37,102 bases of DNA from a virus. The notes under the pieces were generated by a model. That model searched no databases, was not told the DNA's origin, and was given only the letters and a program-made list of their open reading frames with translations. Numbering within the stretch: the stretch's first letter is position 1; every line of letters starts with the position of its first letter. The position numbers and the translations under genes were made by a program. The stretch lies in the UHGV virus genome UHGV-0134521. One strand, 5' to 3'. Shown one piece after another: positions 3,639 through 22,017 of this stretch.

Positions 3639-3935
3639 ATGCTGACGAAAGAACCATCATTTGCATCGCTGCTGGTAAAACAAAGCCCGGCAATGCACTA
3701 CGGTCACGGCTGGATCATGGGAGAGGATGGTAAACGCTGGCATCCATGTCATTCACAAGATGAATTGCTGTCTGAATTGACCACGAGCAAACGGAGAAAG
3801 TCCAAATGTATGCGGCAGAAAATGAAGTGGTTTATCACTTTCGTTACAGAGGGGAGAATTATTCAGTACCTGAAGATGATTTGCTCTGTTGCTATCCGTC
3901 GTTGTCGGGCGATGGTAGCTACTTTTTCACGCTAA
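3639..3935 (+). CDS. Hypothetical early protein; 3' part overlaps the next ORF in another frame and looks non-protein-like
   Basis: GAGG SD 5 nt before ATG 3639; C-terminal ~40 aa is Cys/Arg-rich and low in plausibility. Confidence 0.3.
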   Translation: MLTKEPSFASLLVKQSPAMHYGHGWIMGEDGKRWHPCHSQDELLSELTTSKRRKSKCMRQKMKWFITFVTEGRIIQYLKMICSVAIRRCRAMVATFSR

Positions 3936-4030
3936 AGGATGGAACCTTTATACGTGGTGAAAAAGTACAAGAAGTGATGCGTATAAAGACATCACCTCTT
4001 GAACGTTATCGGCGAAATATTTATCGGTAA
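3806..4030 (+). CDS. Hypothetical early protein, 74 aa
   Basis: ATG with GGAG SD at 9-nt spacing; globular-looking composition. Confidence 0.5.
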   Translation: MYAAENEVVYHFRYRGENYSVPEDDLLCCYPSLSGDGSYFFTLKDGTFIRGEKVQEVMRIKTSPLERYRRNIYR

Positions 4031-4269
4031 CGATCTATCAGTGTCTGTATCAGATGAGTGAATTCTTGTTGTTTAACCGAACCTAAAGGAAGTTTGTTTA
4101 ATTCTTCGCGGAGGAGCTCAAAAAATGCTGATTGATTTGCTGAGTCAGTTCGAAATAAGGAGTGGATCAGACCTGAAACAAGAATTCGTTGAACAGCAAC
4201 CTCATCGCGAAGACTGGAGATCTCGTTTTCAAGTTGCTCTATACGCTCTCTTTCAACCGGGTTCAACAT
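4021..4269 (-). CDS. Hypothetical coiled-coil protein, 82 aa, antisense to the early operon
   Basis: ATG with AAGGAA SD; heptad-like charged sequence (ERERIEQLENEISSLRDEVA...). Confidence 0.5.
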   Translation of the reverse strand: MLNPVERERIEQLENEISSLRDEVAVQRILVSGLIHSLFRTDSANQSAFFELLREELNKLPLGSVKQQEFTHLIQTLIDRYR

Positions 4270-4351
4270 TGATGATTCCTTCTAGCTATCAATATGTTGG
4301 TAATGGATCATATCAAAAATTTTTTAGTAGATGTGTTGTGGGGATGCATAA

Positions 4352-4693
4352 ATGGCTATTGAAAGCGCTGCGGCGACTGTTCCATTAAGCCCCGGTGAAC
4401 GCCTGAATGGACTTAATCACATTGCGGAGTTAAGGGCGAAAGTATTTGGCCTGAATATTGAGTCAGAGCTTGAGCGGTTTATTAAAGATATGCGTGATCC
4501 ACGGGATATCAATAACGAACAAAATAAACGGGCACTGGCTGCTATATTCTTTATGGCAAAAATTCCAGCTGAACGTCATAGCATCAGCATTAATGAGCTG
4601 ACCACTGACGAAAAGCGGGAGTTGATTAAAGCAATGAATCATTTTCGTGCAGTGGTGAGCTTATTTCCCAGACGGCTAACCATGCCGAATTAA
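4352..4693 (+). CDS. Hypothetical early protein, 113 aa
   Basis: ATG start with GGGGA upstream; position in early operon. Confidence 0.55.
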   Translation: MAIESAAATVPLSPGERLNGLNHIAELRAKVFGLNIESELERFIKDMRDPRDINNEQNKRALAAIFFMAKIPAERHSISINELTTDEKRELIKAMNHFRAVVSLFPRRLTMPN

Positions 4694-4760
4694 CCAACTA
4701 ATGAAATTAATGGCGTAAACCCGCCGGGTATCCCTTTATCTAAATTCAGGAGAATTGATT

Positions 4761-4994
4761 ATGCGTAATATTGAAACCCTCACGACTAAAACCGGACCGG
4801 ATGATGCAGGGCTTAATATTTTACTGACAGAGGCTCGTCTGGAAGAACGCCGGGCAAGGGCTGAAGCAATGGCAGCTCGCCTTGATAGCCTGGCGTGTCA
4901 TATCACATCCCGCCAGCTAAACCACGTCGAAGCGGCAGAACTGCTGCGTGTGACTGCTGAAGCAATCCAGAACGAAGCGCAGGAGATCCACTAA
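4761..4994 (+). CDS. Hypothetical early protein, 78 aa
   Basis: GGAG SD 8 nt upstream of ATG 4761; stop overlaps next start (TAATG). Confidence 0.55.
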   Translation: MRNIETLTTKTGPDDAGLNILLTEARLEERRARAEAMAARLDSLACHITSRQLNHVEAAELLRVTAEAIQNEAQEIH

Positions 4995-5221
4995 TGGCAG
5001 ATGCAATGGATCTCGTACAGCAGCGCGTTGAAGAAGAACGCCAGCGCTATATCCGTGCTGCCCGTGCCAAAACACCGGGCGTGTCTCGTGTGCTTTGTAT
5101 TGAATGTGAAGCGCCAATTCCGCCAGCACGACGCCGCGCCATTCCTGGAGTGCAGCTTTGCATTACCTGTCAGGAAATCGCAGAGCTGAAAGGCAAACAT
5201 TACAACGGAGGTGTTGTATGA
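4994..5221 (+). CDS. TraR/DksA-family C4 zinc-finger protein, 75 aa
   Basis: CIECEAPIP...CITCQ four-Cys motif typical of phage TraR-like proteins; AGGAG SD. Confidence 0.7.
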   Translation: MADAMDLVQQRVEEERQRYIRAARAKTPGVSRVLCIECEAPIPPARRRAIPGVQLCITCQEIAELKGKHYNGGVV

Positions 5222-6075
5222 GCACCATCCTGAAATGGGCGGGAAATAAAACCGCCATTATGTCCGAACTGAAAAAACATCTTCCTGCTGGCCCGCGACT
5301 GGTTGAACCTTTCGCGGGTTCCTGTGCTGTGATGATGGAGACGGATTACCCCAGCTATCTTGTTGCGGATATTAATCCTGATTTAATCAACCTCTATAAA
5401 AAGATTGTCGCTGATTGCGAAGCGTTTATATCTCGTGCCAGAGCTTTATTTGAGGAAGCAAACAGGGATGTGGCTTATTACAACATAAGGCAGGAGTTTA
5501 ATTACTCCACTGAAATTACTGATTTCATGAAAGCGGTATATTTCCTGTATCTCAATCGTCATGGTTACCGTGGGTTATGTCGCTATAACAAGAGCGGGCA
5601 TTTCAACATTCCGTACGGTAATTATAAAAATCCGTATTTCCCTGAAAAAGAAATTCGCGCATTTGCAGAGAAAGCCCAGCGGGCAACGTTTATCTGCGCA
5701 AGCTTTGATGAAACGCTGGCGATGCTGCAGGTGGGGGATGTGGTGTATTGCGATCCGCCGTATGACGGTACGTTTTCCGGCTATCACACTGATGGTTTCA
5801 CTGAAGATGACCAGTATCACCTGGCATCCGTTCTTGAACATCGGTCATCAGAAGGACATCCGGTCATTGTTTCTAACAGTGACACATCCCTGATCCGTTC
5901 GCTGTATCGCAATTTTACTCACCACTACATCAAGGCAAAACGCAGCATCGGTGTGGCAGCTGGTGAGAGTAAATCTGCAACAGAAATCATCGCTGTTTCC
6001 GGGCCGCGCTGCTGGGTGGGATTTGATCCTTCGCGTGGCGTGGATAGTTCAGCCGTGTACGGAGTACGTGCATGA
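5218..6075 (+). CDS. dam: DNA adenine methyltransferase (Dam-like, N6-adenine MTase)
   Basis: N-terminal KWAGNK...EPFAGSCAV (AdoMet binding) and DPPY catalytic motif; ATG 5218 with ACGGAGG SD, overlapping upstream stop. Confidence 0.85.
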
Positions 6076-8486
6076 GTCATGCCGATATGAACAACTGCTG
6101 CGGCTTTAACGAGGCTGCCGCAGCGTTCTCATGGAACAGCCCGAAAAAGGCCATTAACCCTTATCTGGACCCGGCGGAAGTTGCGCCGGTTTCTGCGCTT
6201 TCAAACCTGATCACTCTGTACGCTGCCGATAACGAGCAGGAACAACTGCGCCGCGAGGCACTGAGTGATCAGGTCTGGGAGCGTTATTTTTTTAATGAAT
6301 CACGTGATCCTGTCCAGCGCGAAATGGAGCAGGATAAGCTCATTAGCCGGGCAAAGCTGGCGCATGAGCAGCAGCGTTTTAATCCGGATATGGTCATTCT
6401 GGCGGACGTCAACGCCCAACCTTCCCATATCAGCAAGCCGCTGATGCAACGTATTGAATACTTTAGCAGCCTGGGCAGGCCAAAGGCTTATTCCCGCTAT
6501 TTACGTGAGACGATTAAGCCATGTCTGGAACGACTGGAGCATGTACGCGACAGCCAGCTATCTGCATCTTTTCGTTTTATGGCAAGCCATGAAGGGCTGG
6601 ACGGCCTGCTTATCCTGCCTGAAATGAGTCAGGATCAGGTGAAGCGCCTGTCTACCCTTGTCGCTGCGCATATGAGCATGTGCCTTGATGCCGCTTGTGG
6701 TGATTTGTATGCCACCGATGACGTTAAGCCAGAAGAAATCCGCAAAACATGGGAAAAGGTGGCAGCGGAAACCCTGCGTCTGGATGTTATTCCGCCTGCG
6801 TTTGAGCAACTCCGTCGGAAAAGAAACCGCCGTAAACCCGTGCCCTATGAACTCATTCCGGGTTCGCTGGCGCGTATGTTGTGTGCCGACTGGTGGTATC
6901 GGAAATTATGGAAGATGCGTTGCGAATGGCGGGAAGAGCAGTTGCGTGCTGTCTGCCTGGTCAGCAAAAAAGCATCTCCCTATGTCAGCTATGAAGCCGT
7001 GATGCATAAACGTGAGCAGCGCCGCAAGTCACTGGAGTTTTTCCGTTCTCATGAACTGGTGAACGAAGAGGGCGACACGCTGGATATGGAAGACGTGGTA
7101 AACGCCAGCAGCAGCAACCCGGCGCACCGCCGCAATGAGATGATGGCCTGTGTTAAAGGTCTGGAGCTTATCGCGGAAATGCGTGGTGATTGCGCCGTTT
7201 TCTACACCATTACCTGTCCGTCACGTTTCCATTCCACGCTCAATAACGGCAGACCAAACCCAACCTGGACAAATGCGACGGTAAGACAAAGCAGCGATTA
7301 TCTGGTCGGCATGTTTGCTGCATTTCGTAAGGCGATGCACAAAGCCGGGTTGCGCTGGTATGGCGTGCGGGTGGCTGAGCCGCATCATGACGGTACGGTT
7401 CACTGGCACCTGTTGTGTTTCATGCGCAAAAAAGACCGCCGTGCCATTACTGCATTGTTGCGTAAGTTTGCCATCCGTGAAGACCGCGAGGAACTGGGTA
7501 ATAACACTGGTCCACGCTTTAAATCTGAGCTGATAAACCCGCGCAAAGGAACACCGACAAGCTACATCGCGAAATACATTAGCAAAAACATTGACGGGCG
7601 TGGTCTGGCTGGCGAGATCAGCAAGGAAACGGGTAAATCCCTGCGTGATAACGCTGAATACGTTAATGCCTGGGCGTCTCTGCATCGTGTTCAGCAATTC
7701 CGCTTCTTTGGTATTCCGGGGCGTCAGGCTTACCGTGAACTGCGATTGCTGGCTGGTCAGGCGGCAAGGCAACAGGGCGACAAAAAAGCAGGTGCGCCGG
7801 TACTGGATAACCCGCGCCTTGATGCCATCCTGGCTGCTGCTGATGCTGGTTGTTTTGCCACTTACATCATGAAGCAGGGTGGCGTACTGGTTCCCCGCAA
7901 ATATCACCTCATCAGAACTGCTTATGAAATTAACGAAGAGCCGACCGCCTATGGCGATCACGGCATTCGTATTTATGGCATCTGGTCACCCATTGCAGAG
8001 GGCAAGATCTGCACTCATGCAGTGAAGTGGAAAATAGTTCGTAAAGCCGTTGACGTTCAGGAGGCGGTAGCCGACCAGGGCGCTTGCGCCCCTTGGACTC
8101 GTGGCAATAACTGTCCCCTTGCTGAAAATTTGAACCAACAGGAGAAAGATAAATCAGCTGATGGGGACCCCAGAACGGACATTACCAGCATGGATGACAA
8201 GGAGTTGCACGATTACCTGCACAGTATGAACAAAAAAGAGCGCCGGGAACTGGCTGCAAGGTTACGCCTGGTGAAACCGAAACGGCGTAAAGACTACAAA
8301 CAGCGAATTACAGACCATCAGCGACTGCAGCTCGTGTATGAGCTGAAGTCCAGAGGATTTGATGGCAGCGAGAAAGAGGTCGATTTACTCCTTCGCGGAG
8401 GCAGTATTCCGTCAGGAGCAGGCCTGCGTATCTTCTATCGGAACCAGCGTTTGCAAGAAGATGATCAGTGGCGGAACCTGTATTAA
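6072..8486 (+). CDS. A: Replication initiation protein A (P2 gpA-like rolling-circle endonuclease), 804 aa
   Basis: Size, position after early genes, ATGA overlap with dam, P2 A-like sequence. Confidence 0.9.
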
Positions 8487-8838: not shown

Positions 8839-9072
8839 ATGCGCATTGAAATAATGATCGATAAAGAGCAGAAGATTAGCCAGTCTACCCTGGACGCCCT
8901 TGAATCCGAGCTTTACCGCAATCTGCGCCCCCTGTATCCCAAAACGGTAATTCGCATTCGCAAAGGTAGCTCTAACGGTGTGGAACTAACCGGACTGCAA
9001 CTGGACGAAGAAAGAAAACAAGTGATGAAAATTATGCAGAAGGTGTGGGAAGACGACAGCTGGCTGCATTAA
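8839..9072 (+). CDS. DinI-family protein, 77 aa
   Basis: MRIEIMIDKEQKI...WEDDSWLH resembles E. coli DinI (MRIEVTIAK...W...DDWF); GAGGTGA SD. Confidence 0.7.
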   Translation: MRIEIMIDKEQKISQSTLDALESELYRNLRPLYPKTVIRIRKGSSNGVELTGLQLDEERKQVMKIMQKVWEDDSWLH

Positions 9073-9207
9073 GAAACGTTGCTGGCGTCTGAACTTGCTT
9101 CTGGCGTCAGCAAGGTTGAACAACGAGCCCTTGCGAGGCGTTAACTCTGTAGTGCATGTCTATGCCGCATGAGATCGCATGATCGTTTGAGGATCGTTTT
9201 TGCTAAG

Positions 9208-9231
9208 GCCCGCCAGAACTGGCGGGCTTTT
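9208..9231 (+). terminator. Rho-independent terminator after the DinI-like operon
   Basis: GCCCGCCA / TGGCGGGC stem with short loop, followed by TTTTG. Confidence 0.55.
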
Positions 9232-9276
9232 GCGTAGATCATGCAGGTGCATGAAAACCACTACATAAAGCGGGCA

Positions 9277-9295
9277 GGCGTGGCGGGGATACGAG
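9277..9295. other. Putative cos site (GGCGTGGCGGGGATACGAG)
   Basis: Resembles the 19-nt P2/186 cohesive-end sequence from memory (first 13 nt match my recollection of 186 cos); placed between the right-end tum-like operon and the left-end portal gene as expected. Confidence 0.45.
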
Positions 9296-9309
9296 CGCGC
9301 GCTGAGTAA

Positions 9310-9343
9310 ATCCATTGCGCCAGCTAATCCAATGGATTACAAT
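9310..9343 (+). promoter_or_regulatory. Candidate sigma70 promoter (-35 TTGCGC 9315..9320, -10 TACAAT 9338..9343) with 7-bp inverted repeat TCCATTG/CAATGGA (9310..9316, 9331..9337)
   Basis: Hexamers with 17-bp spacing read from sequence; inverted repeat brackets the spacer; about 25 bp upstream of cassette gene 1. Confidence 0.35.
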
Positions 9344-9365
9344 GTTATATTTACTGAGGGCATGT

Positions 9366-10022
9366 ATGAAAGAAAAAATGATAAATGAAATGCCATCGGC
9401 CCATATTAAGCAGTTAAGGGCCAAAACTGGTTTAACTCAAGAGGAATTTTGCGAGACTTTCGGTCTTAATCTCAACACCTATCGTCATTGGGAGAGGGGG
9501 GATAGAAAACCAACTGGCTCATCATTAGTTTTGCTAAAACTTATTGAGGAGTCTTTTCACGAAGTGCTATCAATTATGAAAAAAATCAAGGGGGATGGTC
9601 CAATAATGTCAGATGGTAAAACACTTATACTTAAATCACTTGAACAAGATAGATTTTTCACTTTTGAACGTTTTGTAAAAGAAAGTTCTTTTTTTTCTGC
9701 GGATGCCATTTGTGCTCTTATTAAAGCTAATGGTTTTCCTTATGTTTATTTTTCAAATAACCAAGGGGAACTTGTATTTTCAGCAGGTTATGAAATTGAA
9801 GATATGAAAGAAGTGTTCTGGGTCAAGAATGATGATAGAACATATGGTGGATCTCTCAAAACTGTCGTTGAAAAAACTTATAGTTCAATCTATGCGATAG
9901 AAGTTGACCTGCAAGATGCTGTTTATTGGACTCCGGAAATGAGAAACTCAAGAATAGTCGATATTACCGAGAAAACAGGAATTGAACGTGACTTTTTTAA
10001 CAATATTTTAAGGAATTGGTAG
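9366..10022 (+). CDS. Cassette gene 1: XRE-family HTH domain (HigA/MqsA-antitoxin-like) fused to a ~160-aa C-terminal domain of unknown function
   Basis: N-terminal KQLRAKTGLTQEEFCETFGLNLNTYRHWERGDRKPTGSSLVLLKLIEE is a typical XRE HTH; ATG 9366 after GAGGG; AT-rich. Confidence 0.65.
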   Translation: MKEKMINEMPSAHIKQLRAKTGLTQEEFCETFGLNLNTYRHWERGDRKPTGSSLVLLKLIEESFHEVLSIMKKIKGDGPIMSDGKTLILKSLEQDRFFTFERFVKESSFFSADAICALIKANGFPYVYFSNNQGELVFSAGYEIEDMKEVFWVKNDDRTYGGSLKTVVEKTYSSIYAIEVDLQDAVYWTPEMRNSRIVDITEKTGIERDFFNNILRNW

Positions 10023-10023
10023 T

Positions 10024-10695
10024 ATGCGTGGTAAACTAATCAGCTTTGAAGGTATTGATGGTAGTGGGAAAGGAACTCAATCGAAGCTGCTTTTCGAAAA
10101 ACTAAATGCAATAGGGGAAACGGCAAAGCTATTTAGTTTTCCTTGTTACGAGAATACTTTTTTTGGAAAAGAAATAGGTGCATTTTTGAGAGGTGAATTT
10201 GGCGGGATTAATGATGTACATCCTAAACTCGCTTCAATTTTATACGCAATGGATCGTTTTGAGAAAAGGCAAGAAATTGTAAGTTCCTTAGATCAAGGAA
10301 TTGTAGTAATTTGTGACCGTTATGTCGATTCTAATATCGCGCATCAATCGTCTAAACTTGCAGTTTCTCAGCAGAAGGAATTTATTGATTGGGTTAGTGC
10401 ATTAGAATATGAATTTAATAAAATGCCTGTGCCTGATTTAACATTTTTCCTGAATGTTCCTTTGGATATTTCAAAGGAAATGGTACTGAAGAAGAAAAAA
10501 AGAAGCTACACTGACTCCGAAGAAGATATACATGAAAGAGCATATGATTATTTAGAAAGAGTATTGTTAGCATACAATAAAATTGATTTCGGCACGCGCT
10601 GGAACTTAATTGAGTGCTGTAATAATAATAATCTGATGGATCCTGAGTCAATAAGTGATTTAATATTTAAAATTGTCATGAAAGGGCTTAGATAA
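10024..10695 (+). CDS. Cassette gene 2: thymidylate-kinase-fold P-loop NMP kinase-like protein, 223 aa
   Basis: FEGIDGSGKGTQ P-loop-like segment, CDRYVDSNIAHQS (Tmk DRY motif) and PDLTFFLNVPLDIS (Tmk PDLT motif); start 1 nt after gene 1 stop. Confidence 0.7.
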   Translation: MRGKLISFEGIDGSGKGTQSKLLFEKLNAIGETAKLFSFPCYENTFFGKEIGAFLRGEFGGINDVHPKLASILYAMDRFEKRQEIVSSLDQGIVVICDRYVDSNIAHQSSKLAVSQQKEFIDWVSALEYEFNKMPVPDLTFFLNVPLDISKEMVLKKKKRSYTDSEEDIHERAYDYLERVLLAYNKIDFGTRWNLIECCNNNNLMDPESISDLIFKIVMKGLR

Positions 10696-11615
10696 TGCAC
10701 GAGTTGTTGAGAAAAAAACACTCTAGGAATAGTTTCATTACTCTATTTGTTATAGTTGTAACATTAATACTGCTTCTTCGGTATGCTGTACTTCCTTATT
10801 TTTACCCTCCACAATCAACTGATTTTGGGGGCTTTATTGCGACATTATTAAATGGGCTATTTTCATCCTTAACAGTAACCTTCTTGATCGGTTTATTTAT
10901 GTTTTGGATTCAGCCGAAACCTGAAAATTATGCTAAAATAGAAATTGCATATCCTAAAGAATTACCAGAACTTTTCAATGTTGCGTTCCTTAAAACGGAA
11001 ATTTGGTATTATAAAGGTGGATGTGGAAGATATTTTAGAACAGCTACGTTACCAAATATGGCGAAACAGGCTAGATCAAAGTCACAGTCAAAAGAAATTT
11101 TGGTTGTTATCCTTGATCCAACTAATATTGATTTATGTGAAAAACACGCTATTTACAGAAGTGGTACAGCATCACAAGAAATTGAAATTAGGCCTTGGAC
11201 AACAGAGGAAGTTCGCGCTGAGTTGTTTGCAACGATTATTACAACGCTAATTACTCAAGCCAAAGAACCTTCATTAAGAATAAAATTATCATTATGCCCT
11301 CACTATTCATCTTTTAGGATAGATTTATCAGATGATTACGCTATTATTACAAAGGAAGATCGCAATTCTCCGGCCATTATATGTCATAAGGGGACTCATT
11401 TTTATAAATCTTATAAAGATGAAGTAATTTTGTCTCTAAACCAATCACGTAGTGTTCGTATGATAGATCAAGTTGATTTTACTCTAAGAGATATTGATGG
11501 CACGAAAGTTAAATCTTTGTTATCTGATGCTGGTTTAGATGATAACAATCTCACGCCGACTTTCTATGACAAGGTCGCGTCGTTATGTAAAGAGGCGAAA
11601 AATCCATATGCATGA
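10695..11615 (+). CDS. Cassette gene 3: membrane protein with two N-terminal transmembrane helices and a ~230-aa soluble domain, 306 aa
   Basis: Two hydrophobic stretches near the N-terminus (FITLFVIVVTLILLL; LFSSLTVTFLIGLFMFWI); start overlaps gene 2 stop (TAATG). Confidence 0.6.
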   Translation: MHELLRKKHSRNSFITLFVIVVTLILLLRYAVLPYFYPPQSTDFGGFIATLLNGLFSSLTVTFLIGLFMFWIQPKPENYAKIEIAYPKELPELFNVAFLKTEIWYYKGGCGRYFRTATLPNMAKQARSKSQSKEILVVILDPTNIDLCEKHAIYRSGTASQEIEIRPWTTEEVRAELFATIITTLITQAKEPSLRIKLSLCPHYSSFRIDLSDDYAIITKEDRNSPAIICHKGTHFYKSYKDEVILSLNQSRSVRMIDQVDFTLRDIDGTKVKSLLSDAGLDDNNLTPTFYDKVASLCKEAKNPYA

Positions 11616-12246
11616 TTATATGAATGAAATCTATCAAAAAATAACTAATAAAGAATCGTTCGATGTTAAACGTTTCTTTACTTGCTTGGTTGATAATTTT
11701 GATAATTTTGATCCTACTTGGCATGCATTGGGATTTATTCATTGCCGTTTAGCTCAGAATGATCAAGGGACTTTACGCTTACATATTTGGTTCAAAAATG
11801 ATTCACATCCTGCTGAACAGTTAGAAAAAATTCATGATCATAAATTCTCGTTGAATAGCTATGTGTTGTACGGTGCAATATGTAACGAGGTTTTTGAACT
11901 TATAGAAACGTCATCTGGAAAATATGATTACCAGGCCTATGCAGTTAAATATCTTGATAAAGGTTCAGAGTTAATCCCTTTAGCCACTTATTATAATGTT
12001 AGTGATGTATCTTCAAGTATAATAAGGGCTGGTTGTTATTATACGGTTGACTCCAGAGAGTTTCACCGATCATCACTTGTAAATAGTGAGATGGCGATAT
12101 CACTAGTGGCGACTTTTGAGCATAAAAATAAAGACCCTTTGACTTTGGTATCTCATGGGGGGAGTGAGTTTAAAATAAGAGATAAGGTTCCATTTGATAA
12201 GAACAAATGGGTGGAGATATTAAAAGAATACATATCAAAATTATGA
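11608..12246 (+). CDS. Cassette gene 4: hypothetical soluble protein, ~212 aa
   Basis: In-frame ATG at 11608 overlapping gene 3 stop by 8 nt; His-rich segments; no family recognised. Confidence 0.55.
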   Translation: MHDYMNEIYQKITNKESFDVKRFFTCLVDNFDNFDPTWHALGFIHCRLAQNDQGTLRLHIWFKNDSHPAEQLEKIHDHKFSLNSYVLYGAICNEVFELIETSSGKYDYQAYAVKYLDKGSELIPLATYYNVSDVSSSIIRAGCYYTVDSREFHRSSLVNSEMAISLVATFEHKNKDPLTLVSHGGSEFKIRDKVPFDKNKWVEILKEYISKL

Positions 12247-12253
12247 TGTTAGC

Positions 12254-12277
12254 TGCCAGATAGGATTTATCTGGCAG
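12254..12277. terminator. Hairpin (CTGCCAGATA / TATCTGGCAG) between convergent cassette gene 4 and portal gene
   Basis: Perfect 10-bp stem, short loop, followed by TGGGTTT on the + strand. Confidence 0.5.
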
Positions 12278-12282
12278 TGGGT

Positions 12283-13311
12283 TTAATTTAACTCGTATTG
12301 CCTAAAGCGAATAATTTCATCCCCAGCCCATGGATTTAATGCGAGAAATTTCTTCTGTAACGGAAGTAGTTCATTTTTGACGAAAACATTCGCAGCCTTC
12401 TCCACGTCCCCAAACCCCCCAACATTATTCGGCATAATCCCCATCATCTGTGGCGGAACACGATGCGCGGCCATCATGTCATCACGACTCACGTTCTTGA
12501 TGTTCAGAAATTCATCTTTCGCTGCAACTTCTGACAACGGGATGATCTGAAGCCCGTCCTTTTTGCCGTTAGGCGAGTACATAAACAGGTTACGGAAGTT
12601 ACCCGGACCTTTGGCACTTTTCATCGCGTTGCGGAGGTTGTTTACGTCCTCCTGGTTCTGCGCGGCATCGGTCATGTACATGATGAAGCCAGCATGACTG
12701 CCGTTAATGTAATACTTCCGGCGGAACAGCGTGGCGGACTCGTTGAGCAGGGCTGACGGAATGGCAGAAAGATAACCGGGCAGGCCGTAGATCTCCTGGT
12801 TGATGTCCGGTTCCATCAGATGAAAGATGCTGCCTTTCGTGAACTGATATGGCTGGGTTGTCATACCGTATTGCACAAACCAGTAGGTATCCAGGTCTAA
12901 CCCGCGTCGTGTGTATTTCGCCAGGGCAGGTTCAAGGGCGATAACTTCACCGAAGCGGTTCGTGCGTTTCTCCAGGTAGGCGTTACCAAATACCAGATAG
13001 TCCTGCACAAAACGTGAAAAAGCCTGCTGGCTGAGCAGCGTGTGAGGGATGTAGGTACTGGTCAGAATGTTGCATTTCACCGCAATTGGTGAACTGTGAT
13101 GCACGGCAGCGCGGAAGGTGCGCGCCAGTCCGTCAAAGCTTACTGGCGGCTCATACCAGCGATCTGTCTGTACGCATTCCACATAGTCCAGCAGTTCGCG
13201 GCGGTCCAGAACAGGAACGGGATCACCGAAGCTGAATGCTTCGGCTGAAGTCTGGCTTTTATGCTGGATCTGGTTCGTCGATGCAGCGCGGTTCTTCTTA
13301 CTCTTGCCCAT
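12283..13311 (-). CDS. Q: Capsid portal protein (P2 gpQ-like)
   Basis: P2 Q-like sequence and position; ATG at 13311 overlaps P stop by 1 nt. Confidence 0.9.
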   Translation of the reverse strand: MGKSKKNRAASTNQIQHKSQTSAEAFSFGDPVPVLDRRELLDYVECVQTDRWYEPPVSFDGLARTFRAAVHHSSPIAVKCNILTSTYIPHTLLSQQAFSRFVQDYLVFGNAYLEKRTNRFGEVIALEPALAKYTRRGLDLDTYWFVQYGMTTQPYQFTKGSIFHLMEPDINQEIYGLPGYLSAIPSALLNESATLFRRKYYINGSHAGFIMYMTDAAQNQEDVNNLRNAMKSAKGPGNFRNLFMYSPNGKKDGLQIIPLSEVAAKDEFLNIKNVSRDDMMAAHRVPPQMMGIMPNNVGGFGDVEKAANVFVKNELLPLQKKFLALNPWAGDEIIRFRQYELN

Positions 13312-15077
13312 CAAAAAATCTCCACAATATTGCTGGTATTGGCGGACTCGCCCTGCAGCGGTTCGTTAAACAGTGCGTGCATTGTTGCCCAGGCCAGATC
13401 CGCATGGCTGGCTTCTTCGCTGCGGCTGGCTTCATAGGTCGGGCGGTTGCCGCTGGCGGTGGTGGCGCGACGGATTGCCATAAATGACTGCGCTATGTCG
13501 GTGTGTCCGGCGTCAAACTCCAGACGGCGGTGACTGATAATGTCGTAGGCCTTGAGTACCAGGGCGTTTTTAACGTTGGGGTTGTAGACAAACTCCCGGA
13601 CGGCAGGAAAGAACGCTTTCACGTTCTCGTAAACCCCGTGGCCGACACCTGTCGAGTCGATGCCGATATAGGTCACGTTGTACTGCTCGGTCAGTTTTTT
13701 GATGGCGTCTGCCTGGGCGCGGAAGTCCATCCCGCGCCACTGGTGACGCTCAAGAATGCGGAACTTACCACCAGGCACGGCTGGCGGCGCCACCACCACG
13801 CATCCGGCGCTGTCGCCGTTTTGCGTACCTTTTGCCGGGTCATAACCGATCCACACTTCGCGCCAGCCAAACGGGCGCAGAGCCAGTGCATGAAAGTCGG
13901 TCCAGACTTCCCAGCTGTCCACCATGCACGCCTGCAGCTCGCTGAGCGGGAACACGGACGCGAGATCGTCCACAAACTCGCACATCAGCAGGTTCTGGTA
14001 TTCGTCCGGGCTGTACTCCATGCGCAACTGGTCAAGGTCGAACAGGTTACAGCCGCCGCGCACCGCATCTTCCACGGTGACTATCTGGCGGTATTGCCCG
14101 TCAGCGCACAGCAGGCCGGGGGCCAGATTGCTGTGGGACAGGTCGATGTCCACCTTATCGGCTTTGTTGCGCCCACGGTTGAATAGCGCACCGGACCAGA
14201 ACGGATAAGCACTGTGTGTCAGGCTGGATGGCGTGGAAAAATAGGTTTGTCGCCATTTCTTGTGAATAGCCATACCGGAAGCCACTTTGCGCAGCTCCTG
14301 GAATTTCGGTATCCAGAAATATTCATCCAGATACAGGTTGCCGTGATAACTCTGGGCAGTGCGGGCATTGGTGCCGAGGAAGTAAAGCGTGGCCCCGTTA
14401 GGAAGCACCATCGGATCGCCTTTCAACTCCACCTCCACTTCTTTGGCGAAGTCGATGATGTACTGCTTAAAGACGTTGGCCTGTGCCTTGCTGGCGGAAA
14501 GGAAAATCTGGTTACGTCCGGCCAGCAGGGCGTCAATCAGGGCTTCACGGGCAAAGTAAAATGTCGCGCCGATCTGGCGTGACTTCAGCAGGTTGCGGAT
14601 GCGGTTGGTTTTTCCGGCTTCCCACCAGTGGCGCTGGTAGTTGAACATGGAGGAATGGAAGATTTCTTCCAGCTTCTCAATCTGCTCATCGGTGAAATCA
14701 TTCTTTTCCGGCTGACGGCGTGGGCCTTTGTTGCGGTTGGCGACGTTAGGGTTTAAGTCGGATTCGTTGCCGCCATTGTTAAACTTGCCGATCCGCGCGT
14801 GGCGCTCAGACTGGCGCGCCAGCAGGTCAATCTCTTTGAAATCTTTCCCTTCTTTGTGCTCCTTCATGATGAGCTGGCAGTAGCGTGCGGCGGTGGTGAG
14901 CTGCATCTGATCCAGCGGCCCATAGTCACCCCACTTGTCGCGTTTTTTCCAGCTGTGAACGGTTGCAACTTTCTCGCCCAGCATTTCAGCAATGCGGGCT
15001 ACGCGGTATCCCTGAAAGTACAGCAGCATGGCCTGCCGACGGGGATCGAGATCTGTGGGTGTCAGTGTGGTGTTCAT
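13311..15077 (-). CDS. P: Terminase large (ATPase) subunit (P2 gpP-like), 588 aa
   Basis: Size, position divergent from O, P2 P-like sequence. Confidence 0.9.
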   Translation of the reverse strand: MNTTLTPTDLDPRRQAMLLYFQGYRVARIAEMLGEKVATVHSWKKRDKWGDYGPLDQMQLTTAARYCQLIMKEHKEGKDFKEIDLLARQSERHARIGKFNNGGNESDLNPNVANRNKGPRRQPEKNDFTDEQIEKLEEIFHSSMFNYQRHWWEAGKTNRIRNLLKSRQIGATFYFAREALIDALLAGRNQIFLSASKAQANVFKQYIIDFAKEVEVELKGDPMVLPNGATLYFLGTNARTAQSYHGNLYLDEYFWIPKFQELRKVASGMAIHKKWRQTYFSTPSSLTHSAYPFWSGALFNRGRNKADKVDIDLSHSNLAPGLLCADGQYRQIVTVEDAVRGGCNLFDLDQLRMEYSPDEYQNLLMCEFVDDLASVFPLSELQACMVDSWEVWTDFHALALRPFGWREVWIGYDPAKGTQNGDSAGCVVVAPPAVPGGKFRILERHQWRGMDFRAQADAIKKLTEQYNVTYIGIDSTGVGHGVYENVKAFFPAVREFVYNPNVKNALVLKAYDIISHRRLEFDAGHTDIAQSFMAIRRATTASGNRPTYEASRSEEASHADLAWATMHALFNEPLQGESANTSNIVEIF

Positions 15078-20588: not shown

Positions 20589-21030
20589 ACTGCAGAAAGT
20601 AGACGACTGGCTGAGTGCCTTGCTGGCGAATCTGGAGCCAGTCGCAAGAAGCCGCATGATGCGTCAGCTGGCGCAGGAACTGCGCCGGACACAGCAACAG
20701 AACATCAGGATGCAGCGCAATCCAGATGGCAGCAGTTATGAGCCGCGCAGAGTAACAGCACGCAGCAAAAAGGGGCGCATCAAACGTCAGATGTTTACAA
20801 AGCTGCGCACCACAAAATACCTGAAAACTGCCGCCAGCGCCGACTCTGCCAGCGTGCAGTTTGAAGGCAAGGTACAGCGCATTGCCCGTGTTCACCATTA
20901 CGGCCTGCGCGATCGCTTTAGCCGTAACGGCCCAGAAGTGCGCTATGCGGTGAGGAAGTTGTTGGGTATCAACGAAGAAGTGGAAACTTTAACTCAAGAC
21001 ATATTATTAATGTGGATATCCAGGAAGTAA
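20581..21030 (+). CDS. S: Tail completion protein (gpS-like)
   Basis: P2 S-like sequence; GTG start overlapping R stop. Confidence 0.8.
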   Translation: MAELQKVDDWLSALLANLEPVARSRMMRQLAQELRRTQQQNIRMQRNPDGSSYEPRRVTARSKKGRIKRQMFTKLRTTKYLKTAASADSASVQFEGKVQRIARVHHYGLRDRFSRNGPEVRYAVRKLLGINEEVETLTQDILLMWISRK

Positions 21031-21142
21031 TATTAGGTGATAAGGGAATGCGTAGATTCTTGCTAATTCCATGATCTTTCTCTTATTTTTTAATGCCGTG
21101 ATCTGATACATTGCCCTCTAGAGTTTGAGTTAGGAGGGTGTT

Positions 21143-21943
21143 ATGTCTGAAAAGTTAATTTTTTTATCCCATATAACAGAAGAAAAAGAATTAGCGAAAA
21201 TAATCAAAGATGCAATTGAAGACGAGTTTTCTGGATTCGTTGAAGTGTTTGTATCGTCAGATGGGAATACAATTAAAGCCGGTCAAAATTTCTTAAATGT
21301 TATTGAAAATGGGTTAGTAAATTGTATTGCTGCTATTTATCTGATAAGCCCAGAATCTGTCCAGAGAAGCTGGATTAGTTTTGAGTTAGGGGCTGTATGG
21401 GTTAGAAATGCTATCAGCCGGCAAAACGGCGGGCCAGAAATCCCTGCTATTCCTTTTTGCCACTCGGATATGACGTTTAGAGACTTGCCCCAACCTATCT
21501 GTAATCTAAATGGTATTGAAGCAAACCGATCTCATTCCTTGGAGTTTGCATTTAAGTCGATTCAGACCGCTGTTGGAGGAAAAGGACGATTGAGAACTGA
21601 TTTTGATGTTCTTGCCGAGAAAGTTAACATTTTTGAGAGAGATTATACAGTCTTCAAAAGTATAGGCGAAATTCTCGGTTTAATTGGTGTAGATAGCCAG
21701 CGTCGCGCACAATTAGTTCAGCTTGTTAATAGTTCAGCAGAGAATGAAGTTATAATTAAAACTGATACTAGGCAGGATTCAGCAGATATAATATTTAAAT
21801 TAGTTGATACTAAGTTAAGTCATTTCGCTAAATATAAAGTAACATCTTCTGGTTTAGGTATGGGACTTCAAGGCGCTTCTCCTTTCTGTGAATTTGAATT
21901 GAGAATGGATCGGAAAATACTCAGTGATTACTTGGCTCGATAG
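21143..21943 (+). CDS. TIR-like domain protein (N-terminal ~130 aa) with C-terminal domain of unknown function, 266 aa; moron between S and V
   Basis: LIFLSH...VEVFVSSDG...IAAIYLISPESVQRSWISFELGAVW follows TIR strand-helix topology including the S-x-W-x-x-E-L element; GGAGG SD; AT-rich. Confidence 0.55.
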   Translation: MSEKLIFLSHITEEKELAKIIKDAIEDEFSGFVEVFVSSDGNTIKAGQNFLNVIENGLVNCIAAIYLISPESVQRSWISFELGAVWVRNAISRQNGGPEIPAIPFCHSDMTFRDLPQPICNLNGIEANRSHSLEFAFKSIQTAVGGKGRLRTDFDVLAEKVNIFERDYTVFKSIGEILGLIGVDSQRRAQLVQLVNSSAENEVIIKTDTRQDSADIIFKLVDTKLSHFAKYKVTSSGLGMGLQGASPFCEFELRMDRKILSDYLAR

Positions 21944-21955
21944 TTTCTATTACCT

Positions 21956-21973
21956 TGTGTGAGGTGCCACACA
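21956..21973. promoter_or_regulatory. TGT-N12-ACA dyad (TGTGTGAGGTGCCACACA, extended palindrome TTGTGTG-N6-CACACAA) upstream of V
   Basis: Read directly from sequence; matches the P2 late-promoter activator motif. Confidence 0.5.
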
Positions 21974-21990
21974 ATTCCCTATATTACTAA

Positions 21991-22017
21991 AGCCTGCCAA
22001 TTTCTGGCAGGCTTTTT
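21991..22017 (+). terminator. Hairpin AGCCTGCC-(7 nt)-GGCAGGCT followed by TTTTT, ending 2 nt before V start
   Basis: 8-bp perfect stem plus T-run read from sequence. Confidence 0.5.

Follow-up and report, generated by a model that had tools for sequence, protein, structure and literature searches.

The gpA–gpQ region beside cos is a defence hotspot of P2-family phages (Rousset et al. 2022, PMC9122126). In UHGV-0134521, a viral stretch of 37,102 nt (referred to as the window, i.e., the whole stretch that was analysed; coordinates are positions within it unless another contig is named), this slot holds an AT-rich cassette of four coupled genes, here designated A to D. Like known P2-hotspot cargo (old, tin and the PARIS-era systems), the cassette combines this slot with AT-richness, its own regulation and swapping between near-identical phages, but its proteins are unrelated in sequence to old, tin and the systems tested in PMC9122126. 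Moreover, the text and supplements of that study (PMC9122126) contained no hotspot system with a thymidylate kinase (Tmk), the word "thymidylate" in the supplements referring only to weak P-loop matches of other proteins. As set out below, the heart of the cassette appears to be a membrane protein–cupin pair (C–D), to which a regulator and a dTMP-kinase-family protein (A–B) are joined, and we tentatively read the whole as anti-phage cargo.

Other described systems resemble the cassette in part. A neighbouring nucleoside monophosphate (NMP) kinase occurs at 12% of bacterial viperins (bioRxiv 10.1101/2023.09.13.557418), and the cassette is similar to such pairs of viperin and a CMPK2-like kinase (VakA in PADLOC) in that an enzyme core carries an NMP-kinase-superfamily gene in just some lineages. 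In contrast to viperin, however, there is no radical-SAM domain in A–D, the core consists of a cupin and a membrane protein, and B is of the dTMP-kinase rather than the CMPK2 type. Protein C, with its transmembrane (TM) hairpin, cytoplasmic domain of a ligand-binding type and soluble partner, is reminiscent of the two-TM (2-TM) effectors of CBASS, Pycsar and type II Thoeris, as well as of RexB, although, unlike CBASS, Pycsar and Thoeris, the cassette has no cyclase, TIR, SAVED, Macro or cNMP-binding domain, and a pore in C is conjectural. Finally, the placement of A (a helix-turn-helix (HTH) with a C-terminal domain) directly 5′ of a P-loop phosphotransferase, together with the existence of an HTH-less A, recalls PezAT and epsilon/zeta, but B is a member of the dTMP kinase family that matched no zeta-toxin model in Pfam or NCBIfam, and A–B was not seen without C–D.

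The sequence-only reading of this DNA had recognised no named defence system in the four-gene set, and this judgement held: A–D matched no system named in PADLOC, Pfam or NCBIfam, and for systems published after 2023, which were checked through the literature alone, none was found either. In PADLOC-DB v2.0.0, C and D gave no meaningful match, A matched generic HTH models only (E ≥ 1e-4), and B gave weak generic kinase matches (PDC-M51B, E 2e-10; VakA, E 2e-5). The literature yielded no defence system built on a thymidylate kinase, a cupin or a similar TM protein.

According to the listing of open reading frames (ORFs), A (9366–10022), B (10024–10695), C (10695–11615) and D (11608–12246) all lie on the + strand. 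The TAG stop of A (10020–10022) is separated by a single nucleotide (t) from the ATG of B at 10024, the TAA of B and the ATG of C share TAATG at 10693–10697, and C and D overlap by 8 nt, with the ATG of D at 11608 and the TGA stop of C at 11613–11615. The GC content is 0.33–0.35 over 9501–12000 versus 0.51–0.59 in the flanks on both sides. In all these respects, i.e., the coordinates, strand and junctions of the ORFs and the AT-richness of the block, the sequence-only reading was accurate. It had further placed the block in the variable region between cos and the portal gene, which was borne out as well: a cos-like site (GGCGTGGCGGGGATACGAG; 9277–9295, + strand) forms the left edge of the cargo slot, the portal gene (12283–13314, – strand; annotated as portal in sister phages) lies at the other side, and flank homology ends at both edges. 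The site is a 19-nt match, the only one in the window (0.02 expected by chance), to a pattern that we take to be that of the P2/186-type cos.

The remainder of the window is a 186-like prophage with an integrase (691–1899), CI, CII, a Dam-type methyltransferase, RepA, a DinI/Tum-like protein, portal, terminase and tail genes. The cassette is situated between replication gene A (RepA; 6072–8486) and the portal gene Q, adjoining cos, and the content of this slot varies among otherwise near-identical phages. Specifically, sister Klebsiella and E. coli P2/186-like phages are 95–97% identical to the window up to ~9303 and again from ~12356–12395, and since flank identity breaks at these points, the AT-rich block corresponds exactly to the variable cargo. 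In the same slot, the sister phage vB_EcoM-813R9 carries one gene with a Hypoth_Ymh domain, and the sister CP019275 one frameshifted ORF of 558 aa. That the cassette is an autonomous, horizontally acquired unit, with a putative promoter and a terminator-like hairpin of its own, is strongly supported.

With D as the query profile, an exhaustive search gathered 2,749 D-family clusters at E ≤ 1e-3 and 847 at E ≤ 1e-10; none of the clusters tested had a Pfam domain or a name. A C-like gene overlapping the D-family gene from its 5′ side was confirmed in a soil metagenome, a second metagenome, a Bacteroidia metagenome-assembled genome (MAG) and a Methylobacterium plasmid, and on one further contig a 301-aa gene overlaps the D-family gene from the 5′ side (as judged by length and order only). 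In two metagenomic proteins of ~510 aa, a full-length C and D are even joined in one chain (hhalign E 7e-76 and 3e-49), and one of these fusion genes is solitary, lacking a kinase or HTH gene in its vicinity. Whether overlapping or fused, C–D unaccompanied by a kinase or HTH gene was encountered in five sampled settings from several phyla, and the adjacency and overlap of both genes span Bacteroidia to Alphaproteobacteria. The overlap of the two genes at every locus where they were observed and the two fusions strongly support that C and D work as one unit. Moreover, since C–D pairs occur without A and B, the latter are an accessory pair on an older two-gene unit, encountered to date in Gammaproteobacteria and on metagenomic contigs only. 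Exceptions to the pairing were a D-like gene behind a Prim-Pol protein and a lone, distant prophage-borne D-like gene (both described below).

Sequence relations of this kind strongly support the view that a large family without annotation has C–D as its ancestral core, and equally strongly that C–D forms a membrane-anchored complex of a 2-TM pseudo-PLD (phospholipase D-like) domain and a His-rich cupin. The sequence-only reading had instead proposed a module of sensor/regulator, kinase and membrane effector, and in this it has to be revised: the conserved core is C–D, with A–B as accessory. For locus scanning, the broad D-family alignment proved too diverse and a sub-alignment was used, with which no viral contigs were retrieved. 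In one metagenome (contigs L013 and L014; genes at L013, 4481–6042), a gene of the glyoxalase/VOC family and one for a 233-aa protein lie ahead of the C–D pair, and these two may constitute an alternative accessory pair for the C–D core. The possibility that the 233-aa gene is a diverged A or B was tested and dismissed, as it is unrelated to either.

Protein D (212 aa) had been described as a soluble protein of unknown nature, and indeed no Pfam or NCBIfam family was found for it, nor any CDO_I match, while its family profile matched no PDB sequence. Its modelled structure, however, has the double-stranded beta-helix fold of cupins, with cysteine dioxygenase (CDO), mercaptosuccinate dioxygenase and 3-mercaptopropionate dioxygenase as the closest structural matches. 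Across 87 diverse members, residues H76, H78 and H153 do not vary; they are the probable metal ligands. H59 and Y145 are invariant as well. Alignment by hhalign placed H76/H78 on CDO H86/H88 at a non-significant E of 0.1, and membership of D in the CDO family at the sequence level was not supported, given this E-value and the absence of a CDO_I match. Unlike the thiol dioxygenases (CDO; PDB 4qm8 and 2b5h), D has the additional invariant residues H39, H59, W61 and Y145, as well as an obligatory membrane partner. Among phage proteins, D matched the PHROGs family phrog_4784, of unknown function, at E 6.6e-8, and in BFVD only uncharacterised proteins.

Several D-family proteins depart from the standard arrangement. 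On an IMG/VR contig (L009, 7995–8579), a lone distant D-like cupin with 24% identity retains the HxLGF, RLHxW, IHxH and FH motifs; its gene, which matches PHROG 4784, is located between the tail genes and two integrases of a prophage, without a C-like partner. In P0143 (326 aa; L015, 7001–7981), ~110 residues of the cupin barrel are duplicated in tandem within the protein, and the neighbours of its gene are a C-like gene, PD-T4-7, a RecD-like helicase and Tn5-type transposases. On a contig of GCA_041442895.1, the 219-aa D-family cupin P0175 directly abuts, instead of a C-like gene, a gene for a 479-aa protein with a Prim-Pol domain, which may be an alternative partner of the cupin.

Protein C (306 aa) was correctly described beforehand as a 2-TM membrane protein, with two long hydrophobic helices at its N-terminus (residues 8–36 and 44–72; nt 10716–10910) that make up a hairpin, followed by a cytoplasmic domain (residues ~82–306) for which structure prediction gives a PLD fold. 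Conserved stretches comprise W104-x-Y-K-G-G-x-G-R-x-x-R, F-R-I-D, I-T-K-E-D and a C-terminal N-P-Y. The HKD motif, i.e., HxK(x)4D(x)6GSxN, is absent, there being no invariant His or Lys among 12 diverse members, and by our own reading of the secondary structure the strand region equivalent to HKD reads S-F-R-I-D-L-S...I-T-K-E-D. An active PLD nuclease or lipase was ruled out on account of this missing motif. No PLDc match was obtained in Pfam at E < 0.1, and the C profile matched none of the PDB sequences. In comparison with the inactive PLD folds of FAM83 (DUF1669) and the sugar-binding domain of TrmB, C differs in being bacterial, fused to a TM hairpin and linked in an operon to a cupin, and in having an invariant Gly/Arg/Asp/Thr set of its own.

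Protein B (223 aa) is by sequence a genuine dTMP-kinase-family protein and a predicted enzyme in which all catalytic motifs are retained, in line with the thymidylate-kinase fold that had been recognised from the letters alone. It matched PF02223 (Thymidylate_kin) at E 2.4e-24 and 86.5 bits (cut-off 27) and TIGR00041 at 86.5 bits, just over the cut-off of 83.25, as well as the thymidylate-kinase family phrog_761 in PHROGs (E 1e-24). Among the solved structures, 41 Tmks matched, with the Plasmodium and M. tuberculosis TMPKs as closest relatives (E 1e-20 to 1e-23) and E. coli Tmk at E 1e-9. The P-loop (GIDGSGKGT), the DRY motif and the LID (KKKKRSYT...EDIHE in B; KKKxRSYT..EDIHE as a consensus) are invariant in four genera, with B itself 51–55% identical across genera in this comparison, and B is the most conserved cassette protein (50–59% identity), followed by C, D and A. 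In metagenomes, neither A nor C nor D was found near the 80 closest relatives of B (≤45% identity), and the two of these loci that were inspected both lay amid housekeeping genes. The metagenome scan with the B alignment captured generic Tmk motifs and only Tmks of the housekeeping type, and as such serves as a negative control.

Protein A (218 aa) proved, as anticipated, to be an XRE-type HTH protein (residues ~10–62; HTH_3 in Pfam at E 2e-8) with a family-specific C-terminal domain (~80–218). The HTH matched MqsA (PDB 3fmy) at E 3e-8, and in the comparison of the profile with PDB sequences the antitoxins MqsA and HigA2 were its closest solved relatives, with no match outside the HTH. A itself falls below the thresholds for MqsA, however, scoring 28.3 bits against MqsA_antitoxin (cut-off 30) and 38 against TIGR03830 (cut-off 61.8), both over the HTH part only, and the cassette contains no MqsR-like gene. 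Homologues of the C-terminal domain (~140 residues), which is the conserved portion of A, were found solely in cassette-type proteins. In Stenotrophomonas, A consists of this domain alone (140 aa), without the HTH, indicating that the C-terminal domain is a working part of the system and not a mere tail of the regulator.

Expression signals were located around the four genes. A GC-rich hairpin followed by a T run (9202–9233, + strand; a 15-nt inverted repeat with 87% complementarity and a 2-nt loop, then ttttgc), directly 3′ of the DinI family gene (8839–9072), is the probable terminator of the preceding early operon (replication gene A and DinI/Tum-like) and would thereby insulate the transcription of the cassette. 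Downstream of it, a putative sigma-70 promoter (TTGCGC-17 nt-TACAAT; 9315–9343, + strand) was identified by eye, with a score of 8/12 that is under the scanner threshold, so that it did not appear in the scan output, and a plausible ribosome-binding site (GAGGG; 9357–9361) serves the ATG at 9366. Within the promoter spacer, overlapping the –10 box and 27 nt 5′ of A, lies a candidate operator in the form of a perfect 15-bp palindrome (TAATCCA and TGGATTA around a central A, i.e., TAATCCANTGGATTA; also TAATCCAATGGATTA; 9325–9339), which occurs once in the window against 0.01 expected by chance. The same palindrome is present without mismatch 5′ of A in Raoultella, Vibrio and Stutzerimonas, and with one mismatch in a metagenomic cassette, at loci where the A proteins are just 35–46% identical and the flanking DNA is unrelated. 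Its retention across genera despite such diverged surroundings is strong evidence, from comparison, for A as a sequence-specific regulator that recognises this site and governs the operon to which it belongs. With a conserved palindromic operator overlapping what would be the regulator's own promoter, the arrangement is that of an autoregulated XRE operon; A probably autoregulates the cassette operon via the palindrome and is probably an autorepressor. An inverted repeat at 9309–9317 and 9330–9338 was set aside, as it comprises a half-site and a portion of the true conserved palindrome. At the other end, a hairpin with a 12-bp stem (12252–12278), terminator-like in the scan and situated between the stop of D (12246) and the convergent stop of the portal gene (12283), is probably a bidirectional terminator.

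At least eight further genomic settings contain the four genes in an identical order, which takes the arrangement far beyond chance, and at every ABCD locus the genes are coupled and co-inherited. Homologous cassettes at the same position, whose existence elsewhere had been raised as a check, were indeed found. A P2-like prophage of Raoultella planticola carries ABCD in the same repA–portal slot, with proteins 78–87% identical, and in Enterobacter cloacae (L100 and L101; ABCD intact at 3672–6552) the cassette sits in a 186-like prophage remnant. This remnant has kept CI, CII and Fil, holds terminase as fragments and has lost the virion genes, while occupying the same host site as the window (between the Asp-Al_Ex/TrkA_C permease and YbjM), and it looks like a domestication of cargo. 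Elsewhere, ABCD adjoins integrases in Vibrio lentus and an integrase on a metagenomic contig, and occurs as bare chromosomal insertions in Kushneria, Stenotrophomonas, Stutzerimonas and Aeromonas. The close D family was found in only two of 100,044 species-representative genomes, i.e., it is rare and patchy, and a megablast search for near-identical cassette DNA came back empty for 5,426 complete RefSeq E. coli genomes as well as for 50,697 phage records. Exact cassette proteins were nevertheless observed in ~230 draft E. coli contigs and in Klebsiella variicola, where NCBI labels them "helix-turn-helix domain-containing", "dTMP kinase" or "hypothetical". The cassette is real yet confined to lineages that have not been finished or deposited as phages.

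At ABCD or C–D loci in four settings unrelated to each other, genes of known or candidate defence systems were found as neighbours. The Vibrio cassette has LmuB of Lamassu (E 5.8e-25) at a distance of 4 kb; in the Bacteroidia MAG (L016, 2780–4155), three small genes directly 5′ of C–D, including one for an HTH_3 protein, match the PADLOC candidate system PDC-M64 (B, E 2.5e-57; C, E 1.4e-24); a metagenomic C–D pair is flanked by PD-T4-7 (E 1.6e-32) and a PDC-S68/RecD-like helicase; and the plasmid-borne C–D pair stands amid a Dam methyltransferase, an HNH protein and BrnTA.

From this location and neighbourhood we infer an anti-phage function, and tentatively interpret the cassette as an autonomous, horizontally mobile anti-phage or superinfection-exclusion operon (a "moron") with a C–D core in the cos-proximal slot, at a confidence that falls a little short of even. 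The circumstantial case for immunity is built from the hotspot slot, mobility, AT-richness, rarity, retention in a prophage devoid of virion genes and defence neighbours in four settings. In the lysogen, A would hold the operon at a low set level, and upon infection a 1:1 membrane complex of C and D would be the effector. The metal centre of D might carry out an oxygenase-type reaction or sense through one, while the arginine-rich pseudo-PLD pocket of C could bind a phosphorylated ligand, and its TM hairpin could either anchor the enzyme at the membrane or compromise the membrane and so cause abortive infection. B might supply or regenerate a pyrimidine nucleotide diphosphate as substrate or ligand (cf. 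the kinases beside some viperins), and the C-terminal domain of A might gate B or C–D. Any particular chemistry is, however, much less likely than the anti-phage interpretation as a whole.

A number of points weigh against this interpretation. No experiment or publication was found that ties A–D to phage resistance, and we know of neither a cupin nor a dTMP kinase as an immune effector. C is without the catalytic HKD motif, a pore formed by its TM hairpin is conjectural, and the C-terminal domain of A has no fold assignment. The promoter was called by eye and scores below the threshold of the scanner. No viral contig carrying the broad D family was retrieved, save for one lone distant homologue and the Raoultella prophage, and several ABCD insertions have no recognisable defence neighbours. 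Furthermore, the neighbourhood sample is small (~12 contexts) and comes without a comparison to a background rate.

The same observations also allow a function away from phages, in which C–D would be a membrane metallo-oxygenase acting on a small molecule (e.g., a thiol, a quinone or a lipid-linked compound), joined in Gammaproteobacteria by a regulator and a spare dTMP kinase, and the cassette a non-immune lysogenic-conversion or housekeeping module with a metabolic or stress benefit to the host unrelated to phages. Such a role agrees with the small-molecule dioxygenases among the structural matches of D, with several insertions amid ordinary metabolic genes with no defence genes near, with the glyoxalase/VOC enzyme that precedes one C–D variant, and with a D family that is large and mostly not phage-borne. 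We nevertheless deem it unlikely, as the patchy, island-like spread (two of 100,044 species representatives) argues against it, the low GC, integrase and prophage ties, hotspot location and proximity of Lamassu, PD-T4-7 and PDC-M64 are traits of immune cargo, and a metabolic role leaves the added dTMP kinase unexplained. If the cupin chemistry were instead directed at nucleotides, the cassette would provide a viperin-type chemical defence, with D oxidising a pyrimidine (deoxy)nucleotide to an antiviral analogue or signal, B making the substrate and C anchoring or channelling, and protection would come from poisoned phage polymerases rather than membrane damage. The precedent of an immune enzyme that modifies nucleotides and has an NMP kinase as its accessory neighbour, the weak matches of B to VakA and PDC-M51B, the rank of B as most conserved cassette protein and the fit of the invariant Arg and Gly residues of C to a phosphate-binding pocket all point this way; we hold this improbable.

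The cassette could also be two modules side by side, with A–B as an epsilon/zeta- or PezAT-like toxin–antitoxin pair, in which the C-terminal domain of A blocks a kinase toxin, and C–D as an independent neighbour. A does have the layout of PezA and lies 1 nt 5′ of a P-loop kinase, it shows weak matches to PezA over the HTH (NCBIfam E 0.032; PDB 2p5t E 0.041), its HTH is closest to antitoxins (MqsA and HigA2), and the HTH-less A of Stenotrophomonas parallels epsilon versus PezA. However, B scores above the TIGR00041 cut-off with no zeta-toxin match, its nearest relatives outside the cassette are housekeeping Tmks, no A–B was found without C–D (nor any A, C or D at the 80 closest metagenomic Tmk loci), and the coupling and co-inheritance of all four genes at every ABCD locus speaks against separate modules, so that we give this explanation little credence. 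Still less probable, to the point of being quite improbable, is a module of auxiliary nucleotide metabolism or counter-defence that aids the 186-like phage itself. Thymidylate kinases are common phage auxiliary genes (cf. the phrog_761 match, E 1e-24) and uncharacterised remote homologues of D exist in phages (phrog_4784 at E 6.6e-8, the IMG/VR prophage gene and the BFVD matches), but sister phages with 95–97% identity replicate without the cassette, which is mostly found outside phages, is retained in a prophage unable to make particles, and is under repressor-type control of its own instead of being part of a phage operon.

Outside the cassette, the window contains other low-GC or defence-related features. 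A second AT-rich island (GC 0.37 over 21001–22000), located between tail-completion and baseplate genes, holds a gene (21143–21943, + strand) whose 266-aa product has a TIR domain at its N-terminus (TIR_2, E 1.5e-7; in PADLOC, SpbK at E 1e-4 and PDC-S66 at E 9e-7), which is probably a second, independent defence-type moron of the same prophage. A third low-GC stretch (0.35) at 2001–2500 corresponds to the CI repressor gene (2139–2795, – strand) and the prophage switch region. In the early region, 5′ of replication gene A, a D12-class Dam-like N6-adenine methyltransferase (5158–6075, + strand; Pfam E 2e-77, PADLOC orphan methyltransferase E 1.7e-111) is encoded that is common to the sister phages.

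As a regulated hotspot cassette with a membrane component, ABCD is of a familiar kind, whereas its protein families and likely chemistry are without a described relative. The known immune repertoire comprises NADases, nucleases, cyclases and deaminases. A bolder interpretation, which we regard as rather unlikely, is that C–D is a new, cross-phylum class of immune effector, in which a membrane-anchored pseudo-PLD ligand-binding domain is combined with a CDO-like metal cupin for oxygen-dependent chemistry. C–D would then destroy an essential thiol or nucleotide metabolite, or make an oxidised signal that opens the TM hairpin, and in Gammaproteobacteria it would be coupled to a dedicated dTMP-kinase-type enzyme and to a regulator that reads the state of the system. 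If so, metal-oxygenase chemistry would join the known repertoire.

With its compact size of 2.9 kb, own (putative) promoter, conserved operator and E. coli origin, the function of this operon is directly testable, and the natural C–D fusions and the HTH-less variant of A point to the interacting parts. As suggested by the optional dTMP kinase, immunity would be tied to the pyrimidine nucleotide pool, in parallel to the partnership of viperin with its kinase. Should no phage phenotype emerge, the cassette would still be a mobile operon with a conserved regulator–operator pair and an orphan metalloenzyme. If, on the other hand, it proves to be protective, a CDO-like cupin and an HKD-less PLD domain, neither of which was found in any defence system, would enter immunity, and the cassette would offer the first handle on a family of ~2,700 clusters for which there is currently neither a Pfam or PADLOC model nor any literature.

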